DNA of 58,752 nucleotides from a virus (IMGVR_UViG_3300045988_036009), one strand, 5' to 3'; numbered from the stretch's first letter, positions 1 to 58,752 are shown. Program-made: numbers and translations. The notes: generated from the sequence alone by a model not told the origin.

Positions 1-46
1 TTCTTAGGATCCTCTTTAGGTTTGTCCTCTGGTTTCTTAGGATCCT
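1..46. repeat. Terminal overlap: nt 1-46 are identical to nt 58707-58752 (circular closure / assembly overlap)
   Basis: Both ends read ttcttaggatcctctttaggtttgtcctctggtttcttaggatcct. Collapsing the overlap joins the two adhesin fragments in frame (1073+362-46 = 1389 nt = 463 codons). Confidence 0.9.
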
Positions 47-125
47 CTTTAGGTTCCTCTTTAGGAGTTTCTTCCTTAGGTTTAGGATCTTCTTTTGGTT
101 TTTCCTCTGGTTTCTTATCCTCTAC
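1..125 (-). repeat. 33-bp coding tandem repeat (Pro/Lys/Glu/Asp-rich 11-codon units), left part, degenerating inward
   Basis: ttcttaggatcctctttaggtttgtcctctggt repeated from nt 1, followed by diverged copies. Encodes KPEDKPKEDPK-type wall-spanning linker of the adhesin. Confidence 0.8.
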
Positions 126-1073
126 CTTAGGTTTGTTTTCTCCATCGGCTTTACCGCTGCCGGTTACAAATTGATAAGGAACATCACGATATTGCGAATT
201 GAAGTTATCTGCACTAAGAACAACGCTATTCAAATAACGCTCAGCTTGTTTGATAACCTTTGTACGATAGCTAATATATAACTGATCTGAGAGTTTATCA
301 GCAGACCAAGTGAAACCATTAGTATGGAATACCGGAGCAATCTTAGTTGCTTCAGATTCTTTTTCTTTCCAAGGGTTATTCGATTCGACAGCCACCATTT
401 TAAAGGAATCTTTAACATATTCTTGGTTTTCGTCCCAAGTGTCAGCCACTTTGACATTGACAAGGTCTTTCTTAGCGTAGTTAACGCGCATTGCCCATAC
501 AATTTCGCCTGGATGTTCTGCGTCCTCGCCTCCCCATTTCATAAGAGTTTCATCTTTACCAATAACACCAGTTTTACCAGTAGTAGTTTCAACCTTACGT
601 CCATTAAAATCAAGAGCTACTTGTTGATTCTCAGAAACCTTTTCGACATTCCATTGAGTTTTGATATCAAGAGAGAATGTTTTATTTAGAGGGTGCGATT
701 CAAAGTAGTCATTGAATACAGTTGTAACTTCATTGTTATCTTTGTTTGCGGTGGCTGTACCAACTTCTGTTCCTTCGTTATTATTAACTGGGAATGTGTA
801 GTTGTTTACTAATTTGAGCTCTTGAGGCAATCCAACAGTAATGCTGTCACCTTTGTTGATTGAAATATCATCTGGGATTTGGATATCATTTACTTTGACA
901 TCTACGTCAGCGTAAATAGTATCATCAGATGTAGTTACTTCAACCGAAGGATTTTGTACACGGATCGTTGTATCATCTTTTGTTACTACAGTATCAGCTT
1001 CATTAGCCAATACGCTTGGTGCAGTCAAAAGGGCAAGTGCAATAGTTCCAGTAAATACGATAGATTTTTTCAT
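1..1073 (-). CDS. Secreted LPXTG-anchored Cna/MSCRAMM-like surface adhesin, N-terminal part (ORF runs off the left edge; C-terminal part is 58391..58752)
   Basis: ATG at 1073 preceded by AAAGGAGA. Own translation: MKKSIVFTGTIALALLTAPSVLA/NEADT (Sec signal peptide), then ...LMKWGGEDAEHPGEIVWAMRVNYAKKDLVNVKVADTWDENQEYVKDSF (collagen-binding Cna-A-type motif), then KPEDKPKEDPK repeats. The frame stays open to nt 1. Absent from the ORF track because it is not stop-bounded inside the window. Confidence 0.8.
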   Translation of the reverse strand, partial: MKKSIVFTGTIALALLTAPSVLANEADTVVTKDDTTIRVQNPSVEVTTSDDTIYADVDVKVNDIQIPDDISINKGDSITVGLPQELKLVNNYTFPVNNNEGTEVGTATANKDNNEVTTVFNDYFESHPLNKTFSLDIKTQWNVEKVSENQQVALDFNGRKVETTTGKTGVIGKDETLMKWGGEDAEHPGEIVWAMRVNYAKKDLVNVKVADTWDENQEYVKDSFKMVAVESNNPWKEKESEATKIAPVFHTNGFTWSADKLSDQLYISYRTKVIKQAERYLNSVVLSADNFNSQYRDVPYQFVTGSGKADGENKPKVEDKKPEEKPKEDPKPKEETPKEEPKEDPKKPEDKPKEDPK

Positions 1074-1086
1074 GATAGTTTCTCCT

Positions 1087-2444: not shown

Positions 2445-2744
2445 TTATTTAAAAATCGCTCGTTGAATCGGACTCCAGAGCTTGGATGCGATAATTCCAG
2501 TATGCTCTACGCCGAGCACAGCAATGCCAGCAGCTCCATTAATCACGGTGTTGAAAATGTCAATTGGCTTAACCTTATGTTTTAACTCCTCATTACGGAG
2601 CGCAATAAGTCGTGCCAACCGCTTTTCAACAGCGATTTGTTCTTCTTCTGTTTTTGCGTCTCGGAGTTTGAGCTTTTCCTTCTCAATCTCGCCTTCCAAG
2701 CTATCGAATGCGATAGCGTAAACAACTTTATCAATATCTTTCAT
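2445..2744 (-). CDS. Hypothetical protein with coiled-coil N-half and C-terminal hydrophobic segment
   Basis: 99-aa ORF, AAAGGAAGG RBS. C-terminal IDIFNTVINGAAGIAVLGVEHTGIIASKLW looks membrane-associated. Confidence 0.65.
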   Translation of the reverse strand: MKDIDKVVYAIAFDSLEGEIEKEKLKLRDAKTEEEQIAVEKRLARLIALRNEELKHKVKPIDIFNTVINGAAGIAVLGVEHTGIIASKLWSPIQRAIFK

Positions 2745-2764
2745 ATTGTTTTACCTTCCTTTCA

Positions 2765-3163
2765 TTATGGCCAATGTTTTTTCTGCGAGATTTGAGGAAC
2801 AGCAGCAAAATATCCACGTACGTTTCCTTCGAAATGTTTGTACTTCGGAGGATTATTAAGTGCAATATGTCCTTCCGGACGAGTTTCATCGACAATCAAA
2901 TCATTAGAATTCAATCTGAATGATACCTCGTATGTACCATATAGTTTACCAGCACTCAAATAACAATGAGTCTTTTTATTCCGATGGAACATATCCTTGA
3001 TCATCTCATAGAGATCTTGAGTAAATGGAATACGGAATTCTACATCATATCCTGGAACGTTATCCGCATACTCATAATCGAAGTTGATAATATTATCACT
3101 CAACAACAACGACATCACTTTCTCACCATTATCACAGATAAGTCTCACAATCCCTTTTGACAT
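2765..3163 (-). CDS. Hypothetical protein
   Basis: 132-aa ORF, TAGGAGGA RBS. Confidence 0.65.
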   Translation of the reverse strand: MSKGIVRLICDNGEKVMSLLLSDNIINFDYEYADNVPGYDVEFRIPFTQDLYEMIKDMFHRNKKTHCYLSAGKLYGTYEVSFRLNSNDLIVDETRPEGHIALNNPPKYKHFEGNVRGYFAAVPQISQKKHWP

Positions 3164-4999: not shown

Positions 5000-5182
5000 T
5001 TAGTATCCTTCATTTCTAAGTTTCTTAAGTACTTTATGTACAGTATTTAAACGTTCACGGTGTGGTCCCTCGTCTGATACCATATATCCTTGCTTAACCA
5101 ATCTCTCAATATGAGATTCCTCAAGCACTGCGTATATAGATAAGCAGCGAAAACCAATTTCTCTAAACATTTTTCTGAACAT
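5000..5182 (-). CDS. Hypothetical small protein
   Basis: 60-aa ORF directly downstream of cassette copy P1 with its AAGGAGG RBS. Confidence 0.6.
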   Translation of the reverse strand: MFRKMFREIGFRCLSIYAVLEESHIERLVKQGYMVSDEGPHRERLNTVHKVLKKLRNEGY

Positions 5183-5210
5183 AATAAGTTCCTCCTTAAA
5201 TTATCTTTTC

Positions 5211-5235
5211 ATTATATAACGTGTAATTTCTGCGG
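5211..5235 (-). promoter_or_regulatory. Conserved promoter/leader cassette, copy P1
   Basis: Minus strand reads CCGCAGAAATTACA-CGTTA-TATAAT-GAAAAGATAATTTAAGGAGG-N9-ATG(5182). Overlaps the 3' end of 5212..5493. Confidence 0.65.
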
Positions 5236-5493
5236 AGGCATACCTTTCCAGCAGTCCTCTAAAGGAGCTCCTACAGGAACCGCTAGCAATTTATACTTCT
5301 TGCGAATATCGTTGATCTGTCTATAGATCTCACGAATACGCCATCTCGCCCAATCGCTTGGTCTAAATGTCCATCGTATACCATTCCACCGATGGATTGC
5401 ATCGCTAATAGTATCATAATATACATTAGTACTATCAAACAATAAATAAATCATATCTGTGTCGTTCAAATTAGTATACTTAATTGCTCCCAT
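5212..5493 (-). CDS. Hypothetical protein
   Basis: Start moved to the ATG at 5493 (MGAIKYTNL...), preceded by CAGGAGGGTAAT, 1 nt after the upstream stop. Confidence 0.6.
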   Translation of the reverse strand: MGAIKYTNLNDTDMIYLLFDSTNVYYDTISDAIHRWNGIRWTFRPSDWARWRIREIYRQINDIRKKYKLLAVPVGAPLEDCWKGMPPQKLHVI

Positions 5494-5950: not shown

Positions 5951-5978
5951 AATATGTTCCTCCTTTAAATATCTTTTC

Positions 5979-6005
5979 ATTATAGTGTTTGTAATTTCTG
6001 CGAAA
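5979..6005 (-). promoter_or_regulatory. Conserved promoter/leader cassette, copy P2
   Basis: Minus strand reads TTTCGCAGAAATTACA-AACAC-TATAAT-GAAAAGATATTTAAAGGAGG-N8-ATG(5950). Starts right after the stop of 6006..6440. Confidence 0.65.
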
Positions 6006-6487: not shown

Positions 6488-6853
6488 TTATTTGTGCATA
6501 CTGAATAATTTAGCAGTCAATACCTCAACACCGATATACCAATGCCAATAAATTCGCCATACGGCCCAAATATCACCCGTGTCTTCATAGTGAAATACGT
6601 TTGCCATAATTCGGCTTACGTTGTATTCGATCTTAGAAAGAATCTTAAATTCCTTCTGACCCACAACATGCGCCTTATAAACAGACATTTCAATTTCCTG
6701 TGCAGTATCACGGATAAGTTCAATAGCCTTATCACGTTCCTTATTGTCAATTAGTTTTCGAATAAGTCCTGACCTTTTATTTACAATACGTTTAAGTAAT
6801 AAACCTACGCGTACATAATTGTCGTCTTTTGTGAAAGTTCGTGTATATAGCAT
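6488..6853 (-). CDS. Hypothetical protein
   Basis: 121-aa ORF served by cassette copy P3 and AAAGGAGG RBS. Confidence 0.65.
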   Translation of the reverse strand: MLYTRTFTKDDNYVRVGLLLKRIVNKRSGLIRKLIDNKERDKAIELIRDTAQEIEMSVYKAHVVGQKEFKILSKIEYNVSRIMANVFHYEDTGDIWAVWRIYWHWYIGVEVLTAKLFSMHK

Positions 6854-6879
6854 AATTGCTACCTCCTTTATATCTTTTC

Positions 6880-6909
6880 ATTATAGCACTTGTAAAGAGT
6901 GCGAAAAAA
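6880..6909 (-). promoter_or_regulatory. Conserved promoter/leader cassette, copy P3 (diverged upstream block)
   Basis: Minus strand reads TTTTTTCGCACTCTTTACA-AGTGC-TATAAT-GAAAAGATATAAAGGAGG-N8-ATG(6853). Confidence 0.6.
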
Positions 6910-6978
6910 GAAGAAGAGATGGAGTTGAACCATCGACAACCGTGGTGTTCGGTGCTCTCCCGCTGAGCTATCTTCTTC
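6910..6978 (-). ncRNA. Degenerate tRNA-like element (canonical acceptor, D and T arms; shortened anticodon arm)
   Basis: Minus strand reads (G)AAGAAGA-TA-GCTC-AGCGGGA-GAGC-ACCG-AACACCA-CGGT-TGTC-GATGG-TTCAACT-CCATC-TCTTCTT-(C), then TTTTTT. There is a perfect 7-8 bp acceptor helix and textbook TAGCTCAGCGGGAGAGC and GGTTCAACTCC boxes. Only 19 nt separate the D and T stems, where 22-23 are expected, so the anticodon stem is 3-4 bp and the loop AACACCA lacks U33. Confidence 0.5.
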
Positions 6979-7010
6979 ATTATAGTGTGTGTAATTTATG
7001 CGAAAAAAAA
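6979..7010 (-). promoter_or_regulatory. Conserved promoter/leader cassette, copy P4 (abuts the tRNA-like element)
   Basis: Minus strand reads TTTTTTTTCGCATAAATTACA-CACAC-TATAAT-G, followed immediately by AAGAAGATAGCTC. There is no RBS and no ORF. Confidence 0.55.
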
Positions 7011-7082
7011 GAATAGGCTATAAATTTAACCATCCGGAATCGAACCGGCATTTATATAAGCTTCCTCTCGCGGTACCTATCC
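7011..7082 (-). ncRNA. 72-nt stem-closed structured RNA candidate containing a tRNA T-arm-like hairpin
   Basis: Minus strand reads GGATAGG...TATAAAT-GCCGGTTCGATTCCGG-ATGGTTAA-ATTTATA-G-CCTATTC followed by TTTTTTTT. The outer 7-bp helix is GGATAGG/CCTATTC and the inner 7-bp helix is TATAAAT/ATTTATA. The GGTTCGATTCC box is present. It begins 5-6 nt after the -10 of P5 and has no ORF. Confidence 0.45.
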
Positions 7083-7087
7083 TCTTC

Positions 7088-7118
7088 ATTATAGTGTATG
7101 TAATTTCTGCGAAAAAAA
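7088..7118 (-). promoter_or_regulatory. Conserved promoter/leader cassette, copy P5
   Basis: Minus strand reads TTTTTTTCGCAGAAATTACA-TACAC-TATAAT-GAAGAGGATAGG. The T-run is shared with the terminator of 7143..7559. Confidence 0.6.
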
Positions 7119-7137: not shown

Positions 7138-7142
7138 CAACT

Positions 7143-7559
7143 CTATAGTGATTTATAGAAGTTAACTAATTCATCAGTATCTTTCTCAACTTCTTTAACT
7201 CGTTGATTAATTTGCTCACAAATTTCTTTTACTTCCTTTTCATCAATATCGTTGATTTTCACAAATCCCATTTCTAGATTAGTAGAAATATTTTCCATTG
7301 TGTTCCATGTATCATATACTTTGTAACTACGTGTAAACACTTCTTCATAAGTAACGCAATCCAATAAAGTTTTGAGTTCGCTTCTTATTCTTTTATAAAG
7401 ATTTCGATAATATTCTTTAATGTATAAACTAGCAGTACTATGCGCTAGTCCAATACTCATTAATTTCTCTAACATCTTTTCTAAGTCATAATCCTCGTAC
7501 ATCAAAGCTAATTTGATCATGTTTTCTTGATTTAGTGTAAGTTGTTGTTTTTCAGTCAT
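7143..7559 (-). CDS. Hypothetical protein
   Basis: 138-aa ORF served by cassette copy P6 (AAGGAGGG RBS). Confidence 0.7.
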   Translation of the reverse strand: MTEKQQLTLNQENMIKLALMYEDYDLEKMLEKLMSIGLAHSTASLYIKEYYRNLYKRIRSELKTLLDCVTYEEVFTRSYKVYDTWNTMENISTNLEMGFVKINDIDEKEVKEICEQINQRVKEVEKDTDELVNFYKSL

Positions 7560-7588
7560 GATAATGACCCTCCTTAAATTATCTTTTC

Positions 7589-7617
7589 ATTATCAACCCT
7601 GTAATTTCTGCGAAAAA
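7589..7617 (-). promoter_or_regulatory. Conserved promoter/leader cassette, copy P6
   Basis: Minus strand reads TTTTTCGCAGAAATTACA-GGGTT-GATAAT-GAAAAGATAATTTAAGGAGGG-N9-ATG(7559). Confidence 0.6.
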
Positions 7618-7638: not shown

Positions 7639-7644
7639 GCTTCA

Positions 7645-27973: not shown

Positions 27974-28333
27974 TTATTTTAGATAGTCTTTCAAGACTTT
28001 ATCGATTGCAGATTTGTAGGCCGAATCGATAGCTTTAATAATATATGGGTGTGGAGGAACATAGCCTCCCGTACCAGTTCCGTGACCATAGTGAATTATT
28101 ATAGCGATATTAACACCCTTATTAATATGAGTGTTAAATATCTCTAGTTCTTCACCACGACCAGTTTTGTTGATTTTATAACCCCACGAATTAGCTGTTT
28201 TACCAGATTTGTATGGAGTTGCGGCTTTTAGAGCCTCGACAATAGCTTTACCTAGTGCATCTAAAGAGACCCTTCGATCTCTCTTTAAATACTTTTCTAG
28301 ATTATTGAACGAACCGCTTGTTGTTATTCTCAT
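27974..28333 (-). CDS. HK97 gp10-like head-tail/tail-completion family protein
   Basis: 119 aa. ...ALKAATPYKSGKTANSWGYKI...IAIIIHYGHGTGTGGYVPPHPYIIKA matches the gp10-family pattern (TP..tG.l..sw ... yG ... PF/Y..A). Confidence 0.6.
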   Translation of the reverse strand: MRITTSGSFNNLEKYLKRDRRVSLDALGKAIVEALKAATPYKSGKTANSWGYKINKTGRGEELEIFNTHINKGVNIAIIIHYGHGTGTGGYVPPHPYIIKAIDSAYKSAIDKVLKDYLK

Positions 28334-28743
28334 TCACTTCGTTCCTTATAACTTTTCTTAAGATCTTTCTTAGCAGTCTTATATGCTTTCTTAAGAGCCT
28401 TATTACGTTTCTTGAACTTGTGTTTATACATATGACTGCCGTCCATAGATCTCATCGCAGCTTCGGCACCAATGCCCATTGCTCCGTATCGGGTCAATAA
28501 GTTGTTGCCTGTGAGAAGTCCACCATACATAGAAGCGATACTAGTTTTATAACCTAGTCGTCTCCAAAAATCGGGTTTCTTACCTTTGTATAGTTCTTTA
28601 GACTTTCTGAGTGATTGTTTGTAGTTCTTTTTAAGAGCATGCTTATCACTCATATAGTTTTTACGAACTCCCCATTTCATTCCTTTGGTTCCAAAGTGTT
28701 GGATTACGTCATCGGAATGAATTATAATGGTTGGATCGATCAT
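28330..28743 (-). CDS. Basic protein of the HxGxKGMKWG-motif family (member B)
   Basis: 137 aa. N-terminus MIDPTIIIHSDDVIQHFGTKGMKWGVRKN, with a Lys-rich remainder and a Gly-rich hydrophobic patch. Confidence 0.75.
   Translation of the reverse strand: MIDPTIIIHSDDVIQHFGTKGMKWGVRKNYMSDKHALKKNYKQSLRKSKELYKGKKPDFWRRLGYKTSIASMYGGLLTGNNLLTRYGAMGIGAEAAMRSMDGSHMYKHKFKKRNKALKKAYKTAKKDLKKSYKERSE
28670..28716 (-). repeat. 47-nt perfect direct repeat with 27888..27934
   Basis: Same 47-mer as at 27888..27934. The two copies bracket the gp10-like gene. Confidence 0.9.
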
Positions 28744-30781: not shown

Positions 30782-31097
30782 TATAAACTCCTCCTAAATC
30801 CACGATAACTCTAGGGGCTTTACCTACATCGAAACTTTCGACTTTCCATTTCACCCCTTGGTATTCCATATAAAGCAAATTCGAAATGTGCTTCATAAAG
30901 AATTGGTCAGCAACTAATGAAATTTGGTTGGTAATGCGGATATTGTCAATAGTAGATTTGTCGCCATTTTGATCGCGTCGGTATCTAGAACTGATCACAT
31001 CTCCGCGCACTCGTTTAACAACCAATTGTGGTTCATAAACATCTGGTTCGACTTCAACATCCTTTAATCGAAAACCAGCATTACCAAAGTATTTCAT
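30726..31097 (-). CDS. Head-tail connector / head-closure protein (by position)
   Basis: 123-aa ORF starting on the stop of the capsid gene. Confidence 0.5.
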   Translation of the reverse strand: MKYFGNAGFRLKDVEVEPDVYEPQLVVKRVRGDVISSRYRRDQNGDKSTIDNIRITNQISLVADQFFMKHISNLLYMEYQGVKWKVESFDVGKAPRVIVDLGGVYNEQENAYPGHSDESNSEV

Positions 31098-36084: not shown

Positions 36085-36489
36085 TTAATTCTTCTTTTTA
36101 GATGCTGACCCAGCAACTGCATCGAAACCGGAGTTTACAGATTTCTTGACTACAGATCCTACCGCAGTACGGGCCATATCACGGAAGAAACTATCTTTAT
36201 TAGATGGTTTCATAGTAACTTGAGCATTACGTTTAATTTGTTCCGCGAAATCATTTTCCAATCTTAATCGTTCTGTTGCTCTACGTATGTCCTTATCGGT
36301 CATAGAAGCACGATTCTGATATTTCTTTTTCCACTTGGCAGTGGTTCTTGCAGAGTTTTTGGCTCTTCGTCGAGCCCGAACATTAGATGCTCGGTTCTTT
36401 CTAAAACCCCACTTCATGCCTTTGATACCAAAGTGTTCGATAAAATCGGAAGAAGAATCTACTGAAACCAACTCATTCTGGTTTTGCAT
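36085..36489 (-). CDS. Basic protein of the HxGxKGMKWG-motif family (member A)
   Basis: 134 aa. ...SSSDFIEHFGIKGMKWGFRKNR followed by an Arg/Lys-rich segment (RARRRAKNSARTTAKWKKKYQNR). Confidence 0.75.
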   Translation of the reverse strand: MQNQNELVSVDSSSDFIEHFGIKGMKWGFRKNRASNVRARRRAKNSARTTAKWKKKYQNRASMTDKDIRRATERLRLENDFAEQIKRNAQVTMKPSNKDSFFRDMARTAVGSVVKKSVNSGFDAVAGSASKKKN

Positions 36490-38345: not shown

Positions 38346-38371
38346 ACCCAGTTTTAGGTTTGAAAACCACT

Positions 38372-38444
38372 CCGGGGAAATTTTGGAGAGGTGCGGCGAT
38401 GCAGGGGGGTGGGGAGTCTCTGCTACCCCTCCCCTTAGGGGGTG
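38372..38444. other. GC-rich structured island (candidate cos/packaging or processing site)
   Basis: ccggggaaattttggagaggtgcggcgatgcaggggggtggggagtctctgctacccctccccttagggggtg. GGGGTGGGG at 38406..38414 is complementary to CCCCTCCCC at 38427..38435. It has no T-run, contrasts sharply with the AT-rich surroundings, and lies just upstream of the holin/TerS/HNH/TerL block. Confidence 0.4.
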
Positions 38445-38466
38445 TCACTTGAAATGGTTTGATTTT

Positions 38467-38895
38467 TTATCCATTTTCAAATGTCACGATTCCGGACTGC
38501 GTTGTCGGAAGACGAATGGGCGTTGAAACGTTCTTCTTGATCGTTGTCCATACGCCTTCGATTGGACCTTCATCGATGATCCAGTTCATAGCCACAGCTG
38601 TTCGCTGAGCTTCCTCAACAGCATCGAGCGCGTCTGATGTGTCACCAATAGCCATTGCTAATAGTTCTGGTGTGTTGTAACCATTGTCTTTGTCCCATTG
38701 CCACCAAGCATCGTAGTTGTCGTAAGGGTTGTAAGGGTTGTCGTATGTAGTTAACATAGCATCAACAGTTGTCTCACGTTCATACTCAGCATCAGTTACT
38801 TGATCGTCTGTATGATCACTCATAGCATCAGGCATAGCATCGTGCATGAGCTCGTTAGAGTCTTCATGCTCTAGTGGTTGTGTAGTGTACGTCAT
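38467..38895 (-). CDS. Acidic hypothetical protein
   Basis: 142-aa ORF. Very acidic N-half, with ...TTYDNPYNPYDNYDAWWQWDKDNGYNT... aromatic-rich motif. Confidence 0.65.
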   Translation of the reverse strand: MTYTTQPLEHEDSNELMHDAMPDAMSDHTDDQVTDAEYERETTVDAMLTTYDNPYNPYDNYDAWWQWDKDNGYNTPELLAMAIGDTSDALDAVEEAQRTAVAMNWIIDEGPIEGVWTTIKKNVSTPIRLPTTQSGIVTFENG

Positions 38896-38909: not shown

Positions 38910-41522
38910 CTATGATAGATCCTGTACAGTAGACACACTGATACCTAGTGCATCAGCTACTTCTGCATAGGTGTGACCGTTCTTAAGCATGGTCTTAGCA
39001 CGACTAGCAGTAGATAGGCTAATAGACTTCTCTGTACGTGGTGTAGCTAGCTGCTTAACACGATCACTATCAGCGAATCGTAGTACATCAGTTAGCATCT
39101 TACTAGAGACAGCCCCAGATTGAATAGCTTTCCACTCATCATCGTCAATAGAGATGCGTGTAGACTTACCATCAGCACCAGTCTTAACACGGGCTGCTGC
39201 AATAGCCTGTTGTTTAAGCTTCTTGAGCTGGTCTTTGCTCATGTCAGGAGTACGTTTTTCAGCAATAGTCTTGTTAGCCATGAGCTGAGCTTGACGTTCT
39301 CTAGGAGAGTTGTACAAAGCGTCGTTAAGCTTCTTCTGTAGAGACTCAACTTGTGTCTTGTACTTGACTTTAGCATCCTTAGACATGGTCATGTTAGGCG
39401 TCTTGCTAATGATAGACTCACCTTTTGTACGCATCTTACCAAGAGCATTAATGTAATTACCATACATGTTCTCAATAGCTGTACCAGAACCTAGTTTCTT
39501 AGCATCATCTACCATATCAACAATAGGTGTAAATGAAATGGTTTTAGTTTTCTTGATCTTAGGAGCTAATCTAGGATTAGCAGCTAGTTCTTCAGCAGTT
39601 CTTTCCTTATACCAATGCTCGGTCTCACGATAGTCGGTCTTCGATCTAGAAATAAGAGTTGATGCTCCGCTGGATATCTTTCCTGTTACAACATCATAGT
39701 GTTCTTGATATTTCTTTTTAAGCTGGTCTATATTATTCTCTCTTTCAGAACGTTTATAATCCAAGCTATGTTTTTCAGCATCAATAACAACCATTGAATG
39801 TTTAACAGCTCTAGCAATTTCAGATTGAGATGCGCCTTTAAGAGTCATATCAGTAATAAGATTCGATACAACTCCCATTTGTTTTTGCGTATCAATCTTC
39901 GGTGGCTTAGGAGTATAATAACTTTTCGAATCGAAGTTCTTTAATTCTTTTAAAGAACGACTAGTTTTAATTCCATTATTGTTGTTAGGAATAACCATAA
40001 CTGAGTCACCATCGAAATCAGCACCAGATAATTTAGATGCTACAGATGAATCAATACCGATTGCATCCTTTGCACCCTTCATAAATTTAGCCGGGCCTTT
40101 ATCAAGTTTATTATTAACAGTTAATTCTGGTAACTCGAAAATACCACCATGAGGATAACGAACAAGTACAACCTTTTCTCCATTCTTAAAGTTAGGAGCA
40201 TATACTTCATTAGCTTTAATACCAGATAAAGGTAATAATACTTGTCCTTTCATTCTGTCAAACCCAACCATTTTAAGATGTTGTCGTTTAACAGTGAGGC
40301 CATCAACAAAATCCTGCATCATAACTTTCTTGACTACTGGATTTGTTAAGGCATTGATCTCTTCAAACTCTTTCTTTAATTTATCGTATGTCTTTTCGAT
40401 ACGACCTTTAACCAAAGCTGGTGGTTGTTTAGATAAGAATTGTGAAGATAATGTTTTCGACCAAGAATTCCAATCGCCTTCCTCATTAACTTTATTAATA
40501 GCTCCAGCTTGTTTCTTGATCGTTGCACCAAATGGATTATCCGGATCATCTTTTAAAGGTTTGAGAACTTTTTCTTTAGGAGTTCCTTGTTTCTTGTTGG
40601 TGTTGAAAATAACATCGACACCTTTAGGGAAGTCTTTTGGATCTCCATAAATAGCCATACCTTTTAAATAATGAGTTCCGTTTACACCGATACGAACCTG
40701 AGCATATCTGGATTTACCTAAGTCCAAGTCTTTTACTCCTGGACGTAATTCCATTACACCATCTTTATCCGTACCGCCTTGCTCGTCATATCGAATACCT
40801 ACACGTTTCCAATCAATATGTTGAATAGGTTTCAATCCCAGTGAGGATTTACCTTCAGCATCTGTATGAATATGAGGAGGTGTGATTTCATGCTTGTGTT
40901 CCCTAACAACAGCAGGGTCTGCTTCTTTAGTTAACACTTTCATTTCAACCCAGTGATCATCATTTGTAGCATTCTTAACATATACTGTATGCCTGTGATA
41001 TCCTTCGGATTCCAATTGTTGTACAGCACGTTTAAGAGTACTTTCATTCACACCAAGTTGTTGTGCAGAACCTAAACCAACGTCAAGATATGGATTCTTT
41101 TCAATAAGACCTTTAATATCAGTCTTAATTTGTTCCATGCGATTTACATTGTTACGTACTTTCGCATCTAAATTCATACGAACAGTTGATTCAGGAATAC
41201 CCGTTCTACGAGATATCTCAATAGATCCTAAACCTTGATCGGCGAGCTCTTGAATTCGACTAATATTGTATAATCGAATTTCATGCTTAGCAATATTATT
41301 CCGTTTACGGAATTCAGTAGTTGTAATACCGAGCTTCATAGCAATTTGCGTATCAGATAATCCTGATCGCCTGTATTTAACAACTCTGTCGGACCATGAA
41401 GTAGCCCGCTGAAATGAATTCTCGCCAGATCCCCAAGCATATCGTCCACTATGTGGAATACTACCTTGGTGCGGGGTTCCTCTATGTTCGAGCATATCAC
41501 TATATGCTTCTTCCAAGTTCAT
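38910..41522 (-). CDS. Candidate single-subunit two-barrel RNA polymerase (YonO-like) with N- and C-terminal HTH modules
   Basis: 870 aa. aa 499-512 SGADFDGDSVMVIPN (nt 40005..40019 encode DFDGD) resemble the beta-prime loop NADFDGDQMAVH. aa about 455-475 KVVLVRYPHGGIFELPELTV resemble beta-prime LLNRAPTLHRLGIQAFEP. HTH-like segments: LSDTQIAMKLGITTTEFRKR, GSIEISRRTGIPESTVRMNL, LGVNESTLKRAVQQLESEG and C-terminal HTYAEVADALGISVSTVQDLS. Confidence 0.55.
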   Translation of the reverse strand: MNLEEAYSDMLEHRGTPHQGSIPHSGRYAWGSGENSFQRATSWSDRVVKYRRSGLSDTQIAMKLGITTTEFRKRNNIAKHEIRLYNISRIQELADQGLGSIEISRRTGIPESTVRMNLDAKVRNNVNRMEQIKTDIKGLIEKNPYLDVGLGSAQQLGVNESTLKRAVQQLESEGYHRHTVYVKNATNDDHWVEMKVLTKEADPAVVREHKHEITPPHIHTDAEGKSSLGLKPIQHIDWKRVGIRYDEQGGTDKDGVMELRPGVKDLDLGKSRYAQVRIGVNGTHYLKGMAIYGDPKDFPKGVDVIFNTNKKQGTPKEKVLKPLKDDPDNPFGATIKKQAGAINKVNEEGDWNSWSKTLSSQFLSKQPPALVKGRIEKTYDKLKKEFEEINALTNPVVKKVMMQDFVDGLTVKRQHLKMVGFDRMKGQVLLPLSGIKANEVYAPNFKNGEKVVLVRYPHGGIFELPELTVNNKLDKGPAKFMKGAKDAIGIDSSVASKLSGADFDGDSVMVIPNNNNGIKTSRSLKELKNFDSKSYYTPKPPKIDTQKQMGVVSNLITDMTLKGASQSEIARAVKHSMVVIDAEKHSLDYKRSERENNIDQLKKKYQEHYDVVTGKISSGASTLISRSKTDYRETEHWYKERTAEELAANPRLAPKIKKTKTISFTPIVDMVDDAKKLGSGTAIENMYGNYINALGKMRTKGESIISKTPNMTMSKDAKVKYKTQVESLQKKLNDALYNSPRERQAQLMANKTIAEKRTPDMSKDQLKKLKQQAIAAARVKTGADGKSTRISIDDDEWKAIQSGAVSSKMLTDVLRFADSDRVKQLATPRTEKSISLSTASRAKTMLKNGHTYAEVADALGISVSTVQDLS

Positions 41523-44064: not shown

Positions 44065-44155
44065 GATAATGTCCCTTTCTATTTTGACGTGATTGACAAA
44101 TTGCAACAAAAAATAAAAGAAGCGCGAAAATCGTTGAATTTTCTTGTTCCTTTCT

Positions 44156-44182
44156 ATTATGTGCCATGTAATTTCTGCGAAG
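44156..44182 (-). promoter_or_regulatory. Conserved promoter cassette, copy P7 (upstream block intact, leader diverged)
   Basis: Minus strand reads CTTCGCAGAAATTACA-TGGCA-CATAAT, followed by a 91-nt leader containing a T-rich tract before ATG(44064). Confidence 0.55.
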
Positions 44183-44214: not shown

Positions 44215-47200
44215 TTAGGCCGCCAATTCTTGAGGTTGTTCTTCGTTTAGTCCAAGTGGTTCGATATAATCTTTAGGTATTTCGTCGACAATCGCGTTGA
44301 TGTCTCCAACCTTCATGATTTTCTTCAAACCAGCGATAGCAATTTTATCATAGTAGTCGAAATCGATATCTTCATAATCAAATTCCGACGTTTGTTTGAA
44401 TTTGAATCCTTTTGTTCCAGTGACAGATTTGAAATTCTCATTATCTTCTGTCCATAGACACTCAGCTCCTGTCTTAGAAGCATAAATAGATCCAACCTTA
44501 CCTACGAATTCGTCTCCAAGATAAATATGACCTTTGGATTGCTTAGTAATGAAGAAATCTTGATCAGTCAATTCTTCTTTTGTCCAAACCCGTTTGAGTA
44601 AATATGGATTAGCGAACTCTGCTCCCGTCGGAGACCAACTGTCATCTTCCAATTGAGCAATATAAACAGCATTATTAATTAACGCCATACGTTTATATGT
44701 ATGCTCATGTTCGAATTTATAGTTGTATTCTGGACGCTTACCGAAATCTTCAATAAGTTTAACAACTTTCGCATCGCCATTTGGAACTTTAACTGAGTCA
44801 GTCTTAATATGACAAACTTGGTAACCTTGTTCTTCCAAATAGAATTTGAGGTCGACCATAAATAAAGCTCCACGTTTAGCAACAATATTGTCGATGTTGT
44901 CTTTATGCTTGAATTTATTATCAAATGATGCTGATGTCATTCCATAAACAGAGTTGATAGCAATCTTCAAAGCAGACACCAATGGTTTGCGGTATTCTGG
45001 GTTATCCACGAATGGCGCCAATTTACCTTCAAACATAGTTTTGACTTCGTCAATCTTATTATGTTTGAGTAATACGCGAACTTTAAGCAAGTCAGCATAT
45101 CGTTGAGTATATGGTCCGAAATAATTCATATTGATTAAACTATTCGGATGCATTGACTCAACGTCTTCAAGAACAATGTCTTTATACACACCCGGCTCCG
45201 CATATACAAATCCACCTTCACCAGTTTCAATCCCACGATATGTTGATTTACCGAATTTGTATTCGTATCCTGGGAATGTCTCGCTCAAGTCTACGTAATT
45301 GAATTTGTCTTGTGGACGAGGATCTTGTCCAAAGATAAATAAAGCTGTAAGCTGATTGTTGGTTGCGTTCATGGATCCTTCGGAAATAGTCGCCAGGATT
45401 TCACGAGCAACATAGTCAGCATATGTAGCATCAAATACTTTCTCAGTAGCCATTACGTCGTTGACACAGTATTCAACAACAGTGTCTACCAATTCGTCAG
45501 GTACTGGTTGATCCCAAGGGATTTCCATTTCGACGTGGTTAATTCCCAAATCGACTTCCCAACGCTTAAGCGACTGTTTCTTCTGTGCGTACTCATAAAT
45601 ATCAGCATAGCTCAATTCATAAGCTGCAGCATACATACCAGTCTTCGCATTCTTCTCGTTGATAATTCTTTGGGACTGTCGGAATAACTCCATGTTTGTC
45701 CCTCCGAGCAAACGAGCGTAGAGAATATGGTTATCGTATCGACGGTTGTTGAAACCGACTAATGGAAACGAACACAAATATTCAATTTGGTCTGCTGATG
45801 GATTTACCCAACGAACGAATTCGTCTTCACCATACTTCTTCCAGACAACGACAAATAGATTTGGATAGACCTCAATATCGAAGAATACGATTTCTTCTTT
45901 GGCAACAATCTTAGTTCCTGTTGTCAATTCGGTCTCAGTCTTTCCATCGTCATCGCGCATCGAAGACCAAGGGATCTTCATAAATACGTCCAAGCAATAA
46001 TCTTTGTTGTTCGTTGATTGTAACGCTCGAAGAAATACCGAATGCTTAAGATCGGACAAATCGTATTTCAATCCCATGTCATATGCTTTATGAATTTCAT
46101 GAGAAATCCAATCGATTGTTGGTTTAGTATTCGCATGACTCGGTTTCTCTCCTGGAATAAGTCCCAGTTGTTTCTTAACAAATTTACGGAGAGTCTTCTC
46201 GGTATAGGTAATATCTTTTACGTTTTCATACATCGTTGTCTCCTTCTTCTCTTTCATCGGCAGTCCCGACGAAATATGAGATACTTCAAGATTGTTCGAT
46301 GCATTATCAATCCGTCGCAAAGACGCCTTTCCCTTATAAACTTTAATTTCGACATTGTCTTCAACGACGTTGTCTAATAAATTCACATCACCATCATATA
46401 AATAATGCAGGTGAATACCTTTGCCGGATTTAGATACTTCAGCATATGTCGGGGGATACTTCGACGCAGCCTCTTTATTTAATTCCAGACTTTTCTCTCC
46501 GTTCTCATCCTTGATATCAAAGTCGAGAATAATATGTTGTAGTGGGACTTTAACCCAGTGTAATTTACGAGTATCAATTTCTTTTAGTGTTGTAATAACA
46601 TCATCCCATTTCTGAGATGGGTTTCCATTCTCCAAAGATGGTTGGGCAGGATAATCGGCAGCCAATTTATCGAACACCTCATTGTGATAACATAAATCAA
46701 GCCAATCCTTAACTTCGTCTTCAGGGATATCCATACCGACTACACCTTCAGGAAATGCTACAGACCATCTAAATCCTTTGAAATAATTACGAACACGAAC
46801 GCCATCGACTCGTTCCACGTTAACCATCGTATCGAAATATCGTAGGGCTTCGCGTTTGATCGTGGCTTTATATCCGTCTGTCTTCCATCCCATATCTTCC
46901 AAATAGTTTTTATACAATTCAGAAAGTTGTTTTAAACTAATACCATCTTTCATTTGCATTGCTTCACTTCGAATGAAATCAAAGATATGGTCAGTCTGCT
47001 CAGCCATACTAACATCGAAATAATCATCAAAGAAATCGGGTCCTAGTTCTTCGAATCTCTTAATGGCCATGTCAGCAATATAAGGCAACTCGTATTTGAT
47101 TTGGTTCATCAAAGAATCATATTCCCTATGAGTAACTTTTTCACCGCTTGGATTTACTACAACAGCACGTCGAGTAATACCAGAGTCGACGTTTCGGACT

Positions 47201-48042
47201 TTATATCGTTGGTTTGATGCAGTAATAAGTAAACCGCTAAATGTAACATCATACGGTTCTTTGTACTTTTGGTTGACAGAAATGGTTTCGTGACTTGTCA
47301 GTTTCAATAACGGAGTATCGTTATAAATATGACTGATGTCAGTATCCTCATCGATCAACAATGGAACTTCTTTAATTTGTCCGGTCGCGAATGGATCGCC
47401 ACTCGTTAACAATTTTAAATCGACAGTTCCACAATATTTCTCAAACAACCATCTGAATATCTTAAGTACAGTTCCTTTACCACTACCTTTCGATCCGTAC
47501 AAATACATGAACTTCTCGATCTTGTACATCTTGTTGGTAAATAAAGCTCCCATGAACCAAAGAATTTTGTCAAGTTCTGGTGGAGCATATAGAGTACCGA
47601 TCAATTTCTTAAAAGCTTCAGGTTCTCCCTTGGTTGGTGAATATGACAACTGAGTTGTAGCATAATCCTGTCGCTTCATTTGGTGATCCGCGAATAGTAC
47701 TTTCTGGTTGAATGGAATATCGTTTTGTTCGGTGGCTTTACAATAGTCTAGAAATAATCGGAACTTGCCACCAGAAGCTTTCCGAATTTCTTTCACTTCA
47801 ATCCGAACCCCTGGGCCCTCTTCTTGAAGCTCTTTCGCTTTATTCCACAACTGACTATCAATATCATAGAATAAATTTCGTTGTAATGTGTCCCATCTAT
47901 GTCCATTCCAATATGCATAGAACTTACCACCCTTTACAACTAAATCCTTGGCATCCCCAAAGATAAAGTCGGGCGCCACCTCATAATCACATGATCTGTT
48001 ATTAGAATGGAACTTTTTGACGGAAACGTCCAAAAAATCCAT
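44215..48042 (-). CDS. Fusion protein: SF3 (D5/VirE-like) helicase + AEP-type primase + family B DNA polymerase with 3'-5' exonuclease
   Basis: 1275 aa, AGGAGG RBS.
- Helicase: Walker A LYGSKGSGKGT (aa 181-191), Walker B PLLIDED (227-233), motif C ITASN.
- AEP primase: ILDFDIKD (505-512) and SKSGKGIHLHYLY (537-549).
- Exonuclease: Exo I FFDIEVYPN (720-728), Exo II GFNNRRYDNHIL, Exo III YCVNDVMATEKVF.
- Polymerase: motif A EDVESMHPNS, motif B KIAINSVYGM, motif C HIKTDSV. Confidence 0.85.
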   Translation of the reverse strand: MDFLDVSVKKFHSNNRSCDYEVAPDFIFGDAKDLVVKGGKFYAYWNGHRWDTLQRNLFYDIDSQLWNKAKELQEEGPGVRIEVKEIRKASGGKFRLFLDYCKATEQNDIPFNQKVLFADHQMKRQDYATTQLSYSPTKGEPEAFKKLIGTLYAPPELDKILWFMGALFTNKMYKIEKFMYLYGSKGSGKGTVLKIFRWLFEKYCGTVDLKLLTSGDPFATGQIKEVPLLIDEDTDISHIYNDTPLLKLTSHETISVNQKYKEPYDVTFSGLLITASNQRYKVRNVDSGITRRAVVVNPSGEKVTHREYDSLMNQIKYELPYIADMAIKRFEELGPDFFDDYFDVSMAEQTDHIFDFIRSEAMQMKDGISLKQLSELYKNYLEDMGWKTDGYKATIKREALRYFDTMVNVERVDGVRVRNYFKGFRWSVAFPEGVVGMDIPEDEVKDWLDLCYHNEVFDKLAADYPAQPSLENGNPSQKWDDVITTLKEIDTRKLHWVKVPLQHIILDFDIKDENGEKSLELNKEAASKYPPTYAEVSKSGKGIHLHYLYDGDVNLLDNVVEDNVEIKVYKGKASLRRIDNASNNLEVSHISSGLPMKEKKETTMYENVKDITYTEKTLRKFVKKQLGLIPGEKPSHANTKPTIDWISHEIHKAYDMGLKYDLSDLKHSVFLRALQSTNNKDYCLDVFMKIPWSSMRDDDGKTETELTTGTKIVAKEEIVFFDIEVYPNLFVVVWKKYGEDEFVRWVNPSADQIEYLCSFPLVGFNNRRYDNHILYARLLGGTNMELFRQSQRIINEKNAKTGMYAAAYELSYADIYEYAQKKQSLKRWEVDLGINHVEMEIPWDQPVPDELVDTVVEYCVNDVMATEKVFDATYADYVAREILATISEGSMNATNNQLTALFIFGQDPRPQDKFNYVDLSETFPGYEYKFGKSTYRGIETGEGGFVYAEPGVYKDIVLEDVESMHPNSLINMNYFGPYTQRYADLLKVRVLLKHNKIDEVKTMFEGKLAPFVDNPEYRKPLVSALKIAINSVYGMTSASFDNKFKHKDNIDNIVAKRGALFMVDLKFYLEEQGYQVCHIKTDSVKVPNGDAKVVKLIEDFGKRPEYNYKFEHEHTYKRMALINNAVYIAQLEDDSWSPTGAEFANPYLLKRVWTKEELTDQDFFITKQSKGHIYLGDEFVGKVGSIYASKTGAECLWTEDNENFKSVTGTKGFKFKQTSEFDYEDIDFDYYDKIAIAGLKKIMKVGDINAIVDEIPKDYIEPLGLNEEQPQELAA

Positions 48043-57717: not shown

Positions 57718-58023
57718 TTAGTCTTTGTCATCGAATGTTTCGAAGTCTCCTTCAATAACATCATCTTCGTCCTGCTGTTTCGATGCGTTGTAGATAGCGC
57801 AGACAACTGATCCAATAGCAACTCCTGTTAGGAATCGTAGTGCTGGTTTGCGGTATTTAGCGATGAAATCAGCGGTCTTTTCACCAAATGATTTCTTCAC
57901 CTCAATACTCTCAATTTTCACTTCGGGTTCCTTTTCGGTAGCTACTTCTGTAACTTCGTCCTTTACTTCCTCAACTGTATCAACAACAGTTTCCTCGATT
58001 TGTTTTGAAACTTCTTTTGACAT
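57718..58023 (-). CDS. Acidic protein with C-terminal TM segment; first gene after cassette P8
   Basis: 101 aa, AAAGGAGGA RBS. Glu/Val-rich N-half, TM segment LRFLTGVAIGSVVCAIY. Confidence 0.65.
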   Translation of the reverse strand: MSKEVSKQIEETVVDTVEEVKDEVTEVATEKEPEVKIESIEVKKSFGEKTADFIAKYRKPALRFLTGVAIGSVVCAIYNASKQQDEDDVIEGDFETFDDKD

Positions 58024-58050
58024 TTCTTTGTCCTCCTTTTATTTCGTTTC

Positions 58051-58075
58051 ATTATAGTATGTGTAATTCCTGCGG
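58051..58075 (-). promoter_or_regulatory. Conserved promoter/leader cassette, copy P8
   Basis: Minus strand reads CCGCAGGAATTACA-CATAC-TATAAT-GAAACGAAATAAAAGGAGG-N7-ATG(58023). Starts right after the stop of 58077..58391. Confidence 0.6.
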
Positions 58076-58076
58076 A

Positions 58077-58391
58077 TTATTGATCAAGTCGACTCAAATA
58101 TTCGATTCGTTCTTGAATCATTTCCGCATTGGACATAGCATTAATAAGATCATTTGCGATCTGAACTGGATTCGCTTGTACGAATTTATTCGTGATTTCC
58201 TCAATGTCTTCACTAACGCCATTATTTAATTTCATTTCACGCCAGTTAACCAAAATATATGTTATTACTGCTCGCTCAATAGGATCAAGATCAGCAAACA
58301 TATAATCATACACCATTGATTTAAATAATGATGTTAAATTTAAATCTTGTGGCGCATTCAGAATTTCAGGATCTTTAACCCAGCTTCTCAT
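58077..58391 (-). CDS. Hypothetical protein
   Basis: 104-aa ORF. Its ATG shares one base with the adhesin stop codon (TAATG). Confidence 0.65.
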   Translation of the reverse strand: MRSWVKDPEILNAPQDLNLTSLFKSMVYDYMFADLDPIERAVITYILVNWREMKLNNGVSEDIEEITNKFVQANPVQIANDLINAMSNAEMIQERIEYLSRLDQ

Positions 58392-58752
58392 TATTTAGTC
58401 TCCTTGCGTTTGATAACAACAGCAGCAGATGCCAAGAATACACCAGTAGTAATAAGAGCAAGCTCTAGGCTAGATCCAGTATTTGGCAAAGTATGAGTTT
58501 CAACTTGTTTGGTTGCTTCAATTACTTTAGCCGGGATATTACGCACAACAGGTTTCTTTTCTTCGTATTTACGAATAACAACTTGTTTAGGTGCAGGTGG
58601 TGTTTGAGGTTTAGGAGTTTCCTTAGGCTTATCTGCTGGTTTCTTAGGATCCTCTTTAGGCTTGTCTTCTGGCTTCTTAGGATCCTCTTTAGGTTTTTCC
58701 TCTGGTTTCTTAGGATCCTCTTTAGGTTTGTCCTCTGGTTTCTTAGGATCCT
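58391..58752 (-). CDS. LPXTG adhesin, C-terminal part (continues from 1..1073 across the window junction)
   Basis: Own translation ...KPEDKPKEDPKKPEEKPKEDPKKPEDKPKEDPKKPADKPKETPKPQTPPAPKQVVIRKYEEKKPVVRNIPAKVIEATKQVETHTLPNTGSSLELALITTGVFLASAAVVIKRKETK*. It has LPNTG (58475..58489), a hydrophobic helix and a basic tail, which together make a sortase sorting signal. Stop at 58391..58393. Confidence 0.85.
   Translation of the reverse strand, partial: DPKKPEDKPKEDPKKPEEKPKEDPKKPEDKPKEDPKKPADKPKETPKPQTPPAPKQVVIRKYEEKKPVVRNIPAKVIEATKQVETHTLPNTGSSLELALITTGVFLASAAVVIKRKETK
58641..58752 (-). repeat. 33-bp coding tandem repeat, right part (3.4 units; continues at nt 1)
   Basis: Units start at 58641, 58674, 58707 and 58740 (ttcttaggatcctctttagg(c/t)tt(g/t)t(c/t)(t/c)tctgg(c/t)). 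Confidence 0.85.

Follow-up and report, generated by a model that had tools for sequence, protein, structure and literature searches.

The 58,752-nt genome of the virus IMGVR_UViG_3300045988_036009 (hereafter the window, meaning the whole stretch of DNA analysed) carries, at 38910..41522 on the minus strand, a gene for an 870-residue protein of the PHROG 4291 family. We consider it probable that this family is a single-subunit, DNA-dependent RNA polymerase (RNAP) of the two-barrel superfamily that uses promoters of its own, recognised through DNA-binding modules fused to the polymerase core. The evidence comes from the protein itself, with its predicted fold and invariant catalytic-type residues, and from a compact promoter-like motif, CGCA-N3-AATTACA-N5-TATAAT-G, that recurs in front of small genes and the replication operon and accompanies the gene in related phages. 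The window is a circular assembly and a complete phage genome with 46-nt identical ends (1-46 and 58707-58752). Essentially all its genes lie on the minus strand, as do the genes, protein segments, RNAs and motif copies for which window coordinates are given below.

The open reading frame (ORF) begins with ATG and encodes a protein of 97.2 kDa with a pI of 9.6. The initial annotation, made from the sequence alone, had read it as a YonO-like RNAP carrying its own helix-turn-helix (HTH) modules, and the segments on which it relied lie where it had placed them. The DFDGD loop, likened there to the Mg-binding loop of the RNAP beta-prime subunit, occupies residues 502-506 (40005..40019, by translation and conservation) within SGADFDGDSVMVIPN (residues 499-513), and the second motif, KVVLVRYPHGGIFELPELTV, is found upstream of it at residues 450-469; YAQVRIGVNGTHYLKGMAIYGD (residues 273-294) and HTYAEVADALGISVSTVQDLS (residues 850-870) are likewise in position. 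The pattern D.DGD occurs three times in the six-frame translation of the window, and for only one occurrence, the DFDGD of 38910..41522, is there a long ORF. The decisive point, because of which the match goes beyond chance, is its conservation in 116 aligned homologues, most of them about 45% identical to the window protein, in which D502, D504, D506, R455, P457, D254, R277 and K287 are invariant. The invariance covers the whole segment from S499 to D506 (S499-GADFDGD-506) and likewise D254-G255, R277, K287-G288 and R455-x-P457-H458.

An AlphaFold model of the 870-residue protein (mean predicted local distance difference test score, pLDDT, 82.5; predicted template-modelling score, pTM, 0.72) shows a disordered N-terminus, two tri-helical HTHs, a winged helix, a first beta unit, long helices and a second beta unit; then come a mixed region, a long stretch of helices and, at the end of the chain, a tri-helical HTH. 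The first six-stranded unit, at residues 241-347 (40482..40802; strands 241-244, 256-259, 273-280, 284-292, 304-307 and 342-347), is beta-like and holds D254, R277 and K287. The second, at residues 425-512 (39987..40250; strands 425-431, 439-441, 450-454, 466-469, 487-490 and 507-512), is beta-prime-like and holds R455-x-P457-H458 and the DFDGD loop, so that in the model the beta-like unit precedes the beta-prime-like one along the chain. The earlier guess of a beta-like barrel around YAQVRIGVNGTHYLKGMAIYGD is plausible, as this segment supplies two strands of the first unit, with R277 and K287 on them. According to the model, the two units are probably double-psi beta-barrel domains, and the protein falls within the two-barrel superfamily.

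The proposed comparison of an AlphaFold model with QDE-1 and other barrel polymerases was run with Foldseek, and the top match in the Protein Data Bank (PDB) was indeed QDE-1 (2j7n, E = 8.4e-10); P74-26 gp62 (8f5m, E = 1.2e-8) and the maize and Arabidopsis RDR2 enzymes were also matched. All 16 PDB matches with E<=0.001 were two-barrel polymerases, without exception, which upholds the reading of the gene (ORF, PHROG profile, AlphaFold and Foldseek combined) as a homologue of single-polypeptide two-barrel polymerases fused to HTHs. The next matches, with E of 5e-3 and weaker, were chains of the Pol I, Pol II and African swine fever virus (ASFV) RNA polymerase complexes. In BFVD, the top match was A7XX94 (E = 1.1e-7), a 616-residue uncharacterised protein of Thermus phage P23-45 whose length and match to P74 gp62 suggest to us that it is the non-virion RNAP gp64. 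D254, R277, K287, R455 and P457 follow in the same order as D709, R738, K743, R962 and P964 of QDE-1; eight invariant residues have been defined for all two-barrel RNAPs (PMC2919709). Compared with YonO, the distance from R to DxDGD is similar (47 versus about 43 residues), but those from D to R (23 versus 17) and from R to K (10 versus 5) are larger here. We infer that the protein is catalytically active and that its template is DNA.

The HTH modules that the initial annotation described, three near the N-terminus and one at the C-terminus, resembling sigma region 4 or LuxR-type HTHs, were recovered with Pfam and PHROG profiles. Module 1, at residues 42-80 (41283..41399), matches phrog_3855, 'HTH DNA binding protein', and in the model forms helices 43-52, 57-64 and 68-95; module 2, at residues 94-115 (41178..41243), matches Pfam HTH_IclR (E = 3.4e-7; helices 100-107 and 111-118). 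Module 3, at residues 153-198 (40929..41066), is a winged helix in which Pfam HTH_24 matches residues 153-175 (E = 7.4e-9) and helices 152-156 and 160-172 are followed by a beta hairpin at 176-198. The C-terminal, sigma-region-4-like HTH spans residues 835-868 (38919..39020), with Pfam matches to HTH_23 (E = 4.1e-12) and Sigma70_r4_2 (E = 5e-8) at residues 844-868; among 53 family members scanned, HTH_23 was found in 53/53 and Sigma70_r4_2 in 49/53. In front of all these modules lies a conserved motif at residues 16-33 (41424..41477) with the consensus HYGxxxxSGRYPWGSG, in which H18, G20, S25, G26, R27, Y28, W30, G31, S32 and G33 are invariant in the 116 sequences; residues 1-40 have a pLDDT below 50 in the model and are predicted to be disordered.

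The family is large and uniform. Residues 4-868 align with positions 5-903 of the 909 in the profile of PHROG 4291, which bears the name 'RNA-dependent RNA polymerase' (E = 4.8e-299). tblastn found full-length homologues in 250 phage records at 39-46% identity, all but one (249/250) covering at least 80% of the query, with Arthrobacter, Gordonia, Streptomyces, Microbacterium, Rhodococcus, Curtobacterium, the Lactococcus phage 1706 group, Faecalibacterium and oral siphoviruses as hosts or sources. The nearest record, with 78% identity in the polymerase, is that of Caudovirus D_HF5_2C, a phage from human saliva. A profile search of 1.84 billion representatives returned 1171 clusters (50% identity) at E<=1e-30, and the best 150 clusters are nearly all alike in length and architecture. 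Two representatives of 1789-1809 residues, P0438 and P0465, apparently from G+C-rich genomes, have the polymerase core as their C-terminal half, and both have a linker segment containing PRGFEGGGRFR. GenBank labels for the family conflict: 'helix-turn-helix DNA-binding domain protein', 'RNA-dependent RNA polymerase', 'structural protein' (phage 1706), 'tail fiber protein' and 'transcription factor D5' are all in use.

The idea of a polymerase is already published in silico for this family, and the gene alone is not new. For Ruprich-Robert and Thuriaux (2010), the phage 1706 protein represented one of five 'YonO-like' families, distantly related, which have eight invariant residues in common with all two-barrel RNAPs (PMC2919709). 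Koert et al. described HTHs at both ends, a DxDGD loop and an HHpred match to Pfam RdRP (95.7%) and suggested RNA polymerase activity; the DNA-binding protein that they found common to a supercluster is the polymerase homologue (bioRxiv 10.1101/842583). Phage 1706 orf75 and its actinophage counterparts, such as gp96 of Arthrobacter phage Arcadia, resemble the window protein in full-length homology (40-46%), domain order, neighbours and the motif described below, the common neighbourhood consisting of helicase, endonuclease, exonuclease, polymerase, small ORF and genome end. The window copy differs from the known family in coming from an uncultured oral phage with 39.5% G+C.

The promoter-like motif is a strand-specific, intergenic 33-nt element. 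It reads tTTCGCAGAAATTACA-N5-TATAATGAAAAG on the coding strand, and the candidate promoter takes the forms CGCAGAAATTACA-N5-TATAATG and TTTCGCAGAAATTACAAACACTATAATGAAAAG, with CGCA, TTACA and TATAAT blocks. A repeat search of the window found eight strong copies, to which a weaker ninth can be added, all of them intergenic and oriented with the genes. A degenerate pattern matched the coding strand seven times and the opposite strand not once (0.01 expected from shuffled sequences). In the usual layout, an AGGAGG ribosome-binding site and an ATG follow within 24-31 nt of the motif. One copy, at 44150..44182 (38.5 bits), lies upstream of the operon for the single-stranded DNA (ssDNA)-binding protein, helicase, VRR-Nuc, exonuclease and polymerase, and another, at 58045..58077 (42.7 bits), precedes the gene 57718..58023. 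A cluster begins just after the tail and lysis genes with the copy at 7583..7615, before the gene 7143..7559; it is followed by copies at 7082..7114, before a structured non-coding RNA and itself preceded by a hairpin and a T-run, at 6973..7005, immediately before a tRNA-like gene, and at 6874..6906, before the gene 6488..6853. A further copy, at 5205..5237, precedes the gene 5000..5182; the copy at 5973..6005 scores 48.8 bits and is followed by a ribosome-binding site and ATG. The weaker ninth copy, at 2758..2790 (22.5 bits) before the gene 2445..2744, has the AAAAACA variant known from distant relatives. A short G+C hairpin with a T-run stands immediately ahead of several copies (at 7115-7140 and 7616-7645, among others; GGGACACAAGTCCC-TTTCTTTTTTT is an example), and the small genes are therefore arranged in terminator-promoter cassettes.

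The tRNA-like gene at 6910-6977 matches the Rfam tRNA model with 46.2 bits (E = 1e-8), and its position 1, at 6977, comes 2 nt after TATAAT. It has a shortened anticodon arm and is rejected by ARAGORN, which reported no tRNA for the window or for any of four relatives; the tRNA-like elements were seen only with the Rfam covariance model. A second structured RNA, at about 7010-7080 and with the T-arm-like CCGGTTCGATTCCGG, stands behind the next motif copy. In D_HF5_2C, a tRNA-like element at 27879-27958 (28.9 bits, E = 4e-4) begins 4 nt after TATAAT, and an odd tRNA-like element is also present in phage 1706 at 31097-31163.

The motif is conserved, with a strong strand bias, in phages of two host phyla, which differ greatly in base composition and between which the polymerase is about 45% identical. 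D_HF5_2C has at least nine copies. An unbiased repeat search recovered cACAtGTTTTACA-N5-TATAGTAGAAAG in 10-12 copies from Lactococcus phage 1706 (34% G+C), TCGCAcGtTTTACa-N5-TATAgTGAGACCCCTAC in 6-7 copies from Streptomyces phage Moozy (61% G+C) and TCGCGTAAATTACA-N5-TATAAT(G/A) in 7 copies from Arthrobacter phage Arcadia. The spacing is identical in these four genomes and the window, and all copies but one are on the coding strand; the range extends from Streptococcus-type to Streptomyces phages, with AATTACA, TTTTACA and AAAAACA as variants of the middle block. The 50 kb of SPbeta, used as a control, contain no copy. Most copies in each genome cluster directly behind the tail and lysis genes, where the small-gene region starts, and the replication module holds one or two more. 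Arcadia, Moozy and many metagenomic relatives have one copy about 0.9-1.1 kb upstream of the polymerase gene, before an endonuclease-exonuclease-polymerase operon. In 80 IMG/VR loci that encode the polymerase (1.01 Mb), a scan with a position-weight matrix derived from the five genomes gave 52 matches on the polymerase strand and 0 on the other at a threshold of at least 14 bits, and at 18 bits or more 32 matches in 29 loci against 0. Among IMG/VR stretches with the exact motif, 31/120 also have, within the short length of sequence covered, signature genes of this phage group. No copy was found in the right-end 6-kb loci of Gordonia phage Untouchable and oral contig89.

The layout of the motif departs from that of sigma-70 promoters. 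TTACA and TATAAT are separated by 5 nt, versus 17 nt in the sigma-70 type, and the conserved block occupies the region that a sigma-70 spacer would leave unconstrained; no TTGACA-like hexamer was found 16-18 nt upstream of TATAAT in any host group. None of the intergenic gaps of the window contains a sigma-A-type promoter matching at 10 or more of 12 positions (best 9/12), and the number of sigma-70-like sites in the window does not rise above background and is uninformative (74 versus 63.8 +/- 7.5). In phage 1706, the ATG comes 18-19 nt after TATAGT with a Shine-Dalgarno sequence in between. A sigma-70-type start about 7 nt past the hexamer would yield truncated tRNA-like RNAs or mRNAs that have lost their ribosome-binding site. 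All cases would fit if transcription began at the purine next to TATAAT, and the layout would then resemble that of T7-type promoters, which are compact and contiguous, have a TATA-like stretch directly before a +1 purine and need no sigma factor. Because of the 5-nt gap, the conservation across two phyla, the adjacent tRNA-like genes and the ATG spacing in phage 1706, we infer that the motif is the cognate promoter of the polymerase.

In the mechanism that we propose, the core at about residues 240-640 would consist of the beta-like barrel with D254, R277 and K287, followed by the beta-prime-like barrel with R455-x-P457 and D502-x-D504-G-D506, the order being that of QDE-1 and YonO. The fused HTHs, the winged helix and the C-terminal HTH would find promoters without a sigma factor, the promoter being the compact, bipartite CGCA-N3-AATTACA-N5-TATAAT with +1 at the G or A directly after TATAAT. 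Such promoters would drive the small early genes, the two small RNAs and the replication operon, including the polymerase gene itself. Transcription of the structural genes, which have no motif copy of their own, might come from read-through over the joined genome ends or from the host enzyme. Since the gene for the polymerase stands behind a promoter of the type that it would itself read, the first polymerase molecules may enter together with the virion, which is the weaker part of the proposal. That all of this amounts to a self-contained system, in which a sigma-free RNAP, a compressed promoter and entry with the virion are matched across phages of Firmicutes and Actinobacteria, is a tentative idea that we would not expect to hold in full; autonomy from host sigma factors could let such a phage lineage move between phyla.

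Several observations weigh against a polymerase with its own promoters. The perfect TATAAT in the motif leaves room for recognition by a host sigma factor, the apparent link between motif and polymerase is purely one of co-occurrence, and the argument on the start site presupposes that the adjacent copy gives rise to the tRNA-like RNAs and that their 5' end has to be intact. No motif match was found within 10 kb in many of the 80 loci, including most of those at 43-45% identity; in these, the motif is either too divergent or located elsewhere, for example in a central region outside the scanned stretch. On the side of the protein, Pfam RdRP (PF05183) matches residues 491-586 with 21.1 bits, below the gathering cut-off of 23.8, and neither phmmer with the protein nor hmmsearch with the 116-sequence profile found a polymerase among PDB sequences, the matches being HTH repeats and chance hits. 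The Foldseek TM-scores (template-modelling scores) are about 0.3, because only the core superposes. In the searchable literature we found no biochemistry for any member of the family. Comparison with the YonO profile was not significant, as detailed below. As for the hints of a place in the virion, the label 'structural protein' of phage 1706 orf75 is taken from the GenBank record, and the portal fusion P0438 (see below) could be a gene-calling artefact.

The consensus-like -10 element leads to an alternative that we regard as unlikely, namely that the protein is a transcription factor whose HTHs bind CGCA..TTACA and re-target the host RNAP to -10-only promoters in the manner of T4 MotA/AsiA, the core being inactive or otherwise employed. 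The perfect TATAAT or TATAGT fits the primary-sigma -10 consensus, the upstream block is placed as for a class II activator or a sigma appropriator, several copies show a weak TTTTCG-16-TATAAT match (9/12), and most GenBank records read 'helix-turn-helix DNA-binding domain protein'. However, invariance of eight catalytic-type residues in 116 sequences at about 45% identity, in a family of 1171 clusters, is unexpected for a dead core; the motif and its spacing are kept across two host phyla that differ in their RNAPs and sigma factors, and the tRNA-like genes begin 2-4 nt after TATAAT, too near for a sigma-70-type start. The name given to PHROG 4291 and to several records would instead make the protein an RNA-dependent RNA polymerase that copies phage or host transcripts, for example into double-stranded or antisense RNA. 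The best structural matches, QDE-1 and plant RDR2, and the presence of Pfam RdRP in 31/53 members (E<=0.01, best 4.6e-5) speak for this, yet the name derives from the Pfam family only, the characterised relatives YonO (PMC5467207) and P23-45 gp64 and gp96 (PMC10770324) are DNA-dependent, and QDE-1 also works on DNA templates (PMC9508822). Four modules of the type that binds double-stranded DNA, travelling together with a promoter-like motif, fit DNA-templated initiation, and we find RNA copying as the main activity very improbable.

The initial annotation had favoured a YonO-like late polymerase, which would be made early or in the middle of infection and then be specific to the 30-kb block of structural and lysis genes. 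Such a late role found no direct support, and we hold it to be unlikely. YonO transcribes the late operon of SPbeta (PMC5467207), the circular map puts the gene directly upstream of the structural block on the same strand, and the coding strand shows no terminator-like site from the copy at 44150-44182 to position 36000. However, none of five genomes (the window, D_HF5_2C, 1706, Moozy and Arcadia) has a motif copy before the terminase and structural block; the copies cluster at small, early-type non-structural genes and replication genes, and in relatives with defined ends the genome end lies between polymerase and structural genes. The lack of a terminator-like site means that late genes could be reached by read-through, and late expression by read-through from the last promoter is a possible part of the explanation that we prefer, a polymerase serving its own early and replication promoters. 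To a role in replication, by primer synthesis or by activating an origin through transcription, we attach hardly any probability. Iteron-like repeat arrays do lie just upstream of the operon in relatives, but the phage encodes its own helicase-primase-polymerase replicase, whose phage 1706 homologue GP55 has been characterised (PMC12205980), and the motif copies lead, in promoter fashion, into ribosome-binding sites and start codons or small RNA genes. A replication primase as the main function was rejected on the grounds of this primase-polymerase and of the motif copies before ribosome-binding sites.

The neighbourhood of the gene bears on its relation to the structural genes. Upstream of the polymerase are genes for a putative ssDNA-binding/annealing protein, a helicase, a VRR-Nuc-type endonuclease and a Cas4-like exonuclease. 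The gene at 44215-48042, encoding 1275 residues, is a homologue of phage 1706 GP55 and is labelled 'DNA polymerase/primase' in D_HF5_2C; GP55 is a characterised 'four-in-one' helicase-primase-polymerase replicase (PMC12205980). In Arthrobacter, Gordonia and oral relatives, the gap between helicase and endonuclease contains dense short direct repeats (GTGGCCAAA, TTGTCAAATC and TTTGCCAGTTTT), with arrays at 1700-2150 of locus L003, 1160-1540 of L005 and 1560-2100 of L006; these arrays look like replication-origin iterons, and the window has no such gap there.

The polymerase gene is followed, at 38467..38895, by a small ORF of phrog_4303 with the motif MLTTxDNPYNPF..W..WD..GY (alignment and synteny). 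This ORF follows the polymerase in every relative examined (1706, Arcadia, Moozy, Untouchable and D_HF5_2C) and is its neighbour in phages of both Firmicutes and Actinobacteria; its product may be a partner of the polymerase. The window version has an extra acidic N-terminal extension of about 45 residues. In relatives with defined ends, the polymerase is the penultimate gene at the right end and the genome stops 55-450 nt after the small ORF, and many IMG/VR contigs end 300-450 nt after the polymerase gene. By synteny, the G+C-rich non-coding tract at 38346..38466, which contains CACCCCCTAAGGGGAGGGG and further on CCCCACCCCCCTGCATCGCCGCACC and is the only sizeable one near the gene, is probably the genome end (cohesive-end site, cos), lying between the polymerase and the structural genes. 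In lactococcal relatives, which are cos phages, the 3' overhangs are rich in G+C (PMC4110766). The position originally claimed for the gene, between the replication module and the structural genes, thus holds for the circular form, whereas in relatives a genome end intervenes. A partial check of the claim that no other RNAP or sigma factor is visible covered about 20 further proteins and found none.

Delivery of the polymerase with the virion is hinted at by the GenBank label of phage 1706 orf75 and by sequence features of the family. In the distant relative P0438 (1789 residues), Phage_portal (PF04860, E = 2.9e-29) matches residues 76-389 and is joined through a long linker to the polymerase core at residues 1050-1788. 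This fusion is without the N-terminal motif and the first two HTHs, and the portal domain stands in the place of HYG..SGRYPWGSG, which might be a signal for incorporation into virions. That motif loosely resembles HFGxKGMKWG, an N-terminal motif of five small proteins encoded mostly in the structural region (7645-8184, 8933-9334, 27431-27958, 28330-28743 and 36085-36489), which match Pfam DUF7211, four of them above the cut-off; two of the five also match a PHROG annotated 'virion structural protein'. Membership of the polymerase N-terminus in DUF7211 is not claimed, as the matches were weak and seen in 2/6 homologues (E 0.02-0.05).

Other features of the window include a gene that spans the junction of the assembly (about 1086..1 and 58752..58391) and encodes a secreted surface protein with the signal peptide MKKSIVFTGTIALALLTAPSVLA, KPEDKPKEDPKK repeats and an LPNTG sortase anchor. 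The KPEDKPKEDPKK repeats correspond to the 33-nt periodic repeat at both ends of the window. The product has the look of a cell-wall adhesin encoded by the phage, an indication of a Gram-positive host. A tape-measure-like gene at 19117-27417, encoding 2766 residues, has internal tandem repeats (21311-21513 and 23652-24182) made up of 54-nt units and of three 177-nt units.

The CGCA..TATAAT motif and the start site deduced from it are absent from the papers on the family that were consulted and are new here. In the literature searched, we found neither experimental work on the family nor a description of the motif; a study of Microbacterium phages reports other repeat motifs and does not describe this one for Cluster EL (PMC7302621), and the paper on the phage 1706 replicase mentions neither polymerase nor promoters (PMC12205980). 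The fused modules and a defined candidate promoter make testable the question of how single-subunit two-barrel RNAPs find promoters. The candidate promoter accompanies the gene in genomes of 34% to 61% G+C, and cultured relatives allow tests, the cultured members being Lactococcus phage 1706 and many SEA-PHAGES phages of Arthrobacter, Gordonia and Streptomyces. If confirmed, the pair would be a compact, sigma-independent combination of enzyme and promoter within the superfamily of cellular RNAPs, a model of minimal promoter recognition and possibly an orthogonal expression tool for Gram-positive bacteria, and hundreds of records labelled 'HTH DNA-binding protein', 'RNA-dependent RNA polymerase', 'tail fiber' or 'transcription factor D5' would be due for correction.

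Among known polymerases, YonO of the Bacillus prophage SPbeta, which the initial annotation had named, is like the window protein a single polypeptide of about 100 kDa with a beta-like followed by a beta-prime-like unit and the succession DG..R..KG ... RxPH ... DxDGD. The invariants of the YonO family (D249-G250, R266, K271-G272, R492-x-P494-H495 and D535-x-D537-G-D539) follow the same pattern, and in both families some members match Pfam RdRP. By contrast, YonO has no detected HTH modules and has a Cys-rich C-terminal segment. Strict membership in the YonO family was not borne out: hhalign against a 42-sequence YonO profile gave a probability of 0.4% (E = 0.16), and the aligned segments were the expected RxPH (RSPH) and DxDGD (DNDGD), in the right order and not significant. 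Filing the protein under YonO was rejected, the 116-sequence profile giving 2.8% on an irrelevant segment against the single YonO sequence and less than 1% against the YonO profile. The YonO-like interpretation thus stands at the level of the superfamily, in fold and residues, and fails for the family in the strict sense as well as lacking direct support for a late role. Because the profile comparison with YonO was not significant, the protein is best placed, at the sequence level, in a separate family of the two-barrel superfamily, as had been proposed (PMC2919709). YonO is a DNA-dependent RNAP that transcribes the SPbeta late operon, and its authors state that it is unknown whether it recognises promoters by itself (PMC5467207).

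The other comparisons are similar in kind. T7-type RNAPs have a right-hand fold unrelated to the two-barrel fold, and the likeness of their promoters, drawn from sequence, would be functional only. The crAss-like phage protein gp66 is reportedly a DNA-dependent RNAP; with N4 vRNAP and P23-45 gp96 it belongs to the phage RNAPs that are delivered by the virion. QDE-1 and RDR2 are the best structural matches (E from 8.4e-10 to 5e-5) and share with the family the Pfam RdRP match over the DxDGD region; they differ in being eukaryotic silencing enzymes that act on RNA or ssDNA, with 10-14% identity to the window protein and neither HTHs nor promoters, and QDE-1 accepts DNA templates too (PMC9508822). 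P23-45 gp64, P74-26 gp62 and gp96 are, like the window protein, single-subunit two-barrel RNAPs of phages; gp62 is the second-best structural match (E = 1.2e-8, TM-score 0.43-0.47 normalised to the target), and gp64 and gp96 of P23-45 are DNA-dependent (PMC10770324). The Thermus phage enzymes share about 11% identity with the window protein and are without HTH fusions. The virion RNAP gp96 is a tape-measure fusion, whereas the only fusion among relatives of the window protein is with a portal domain. The Thermus phage enzymes each have a conserved promoter motif of their own, and one of them is delivered with the virion (PMC10770324).

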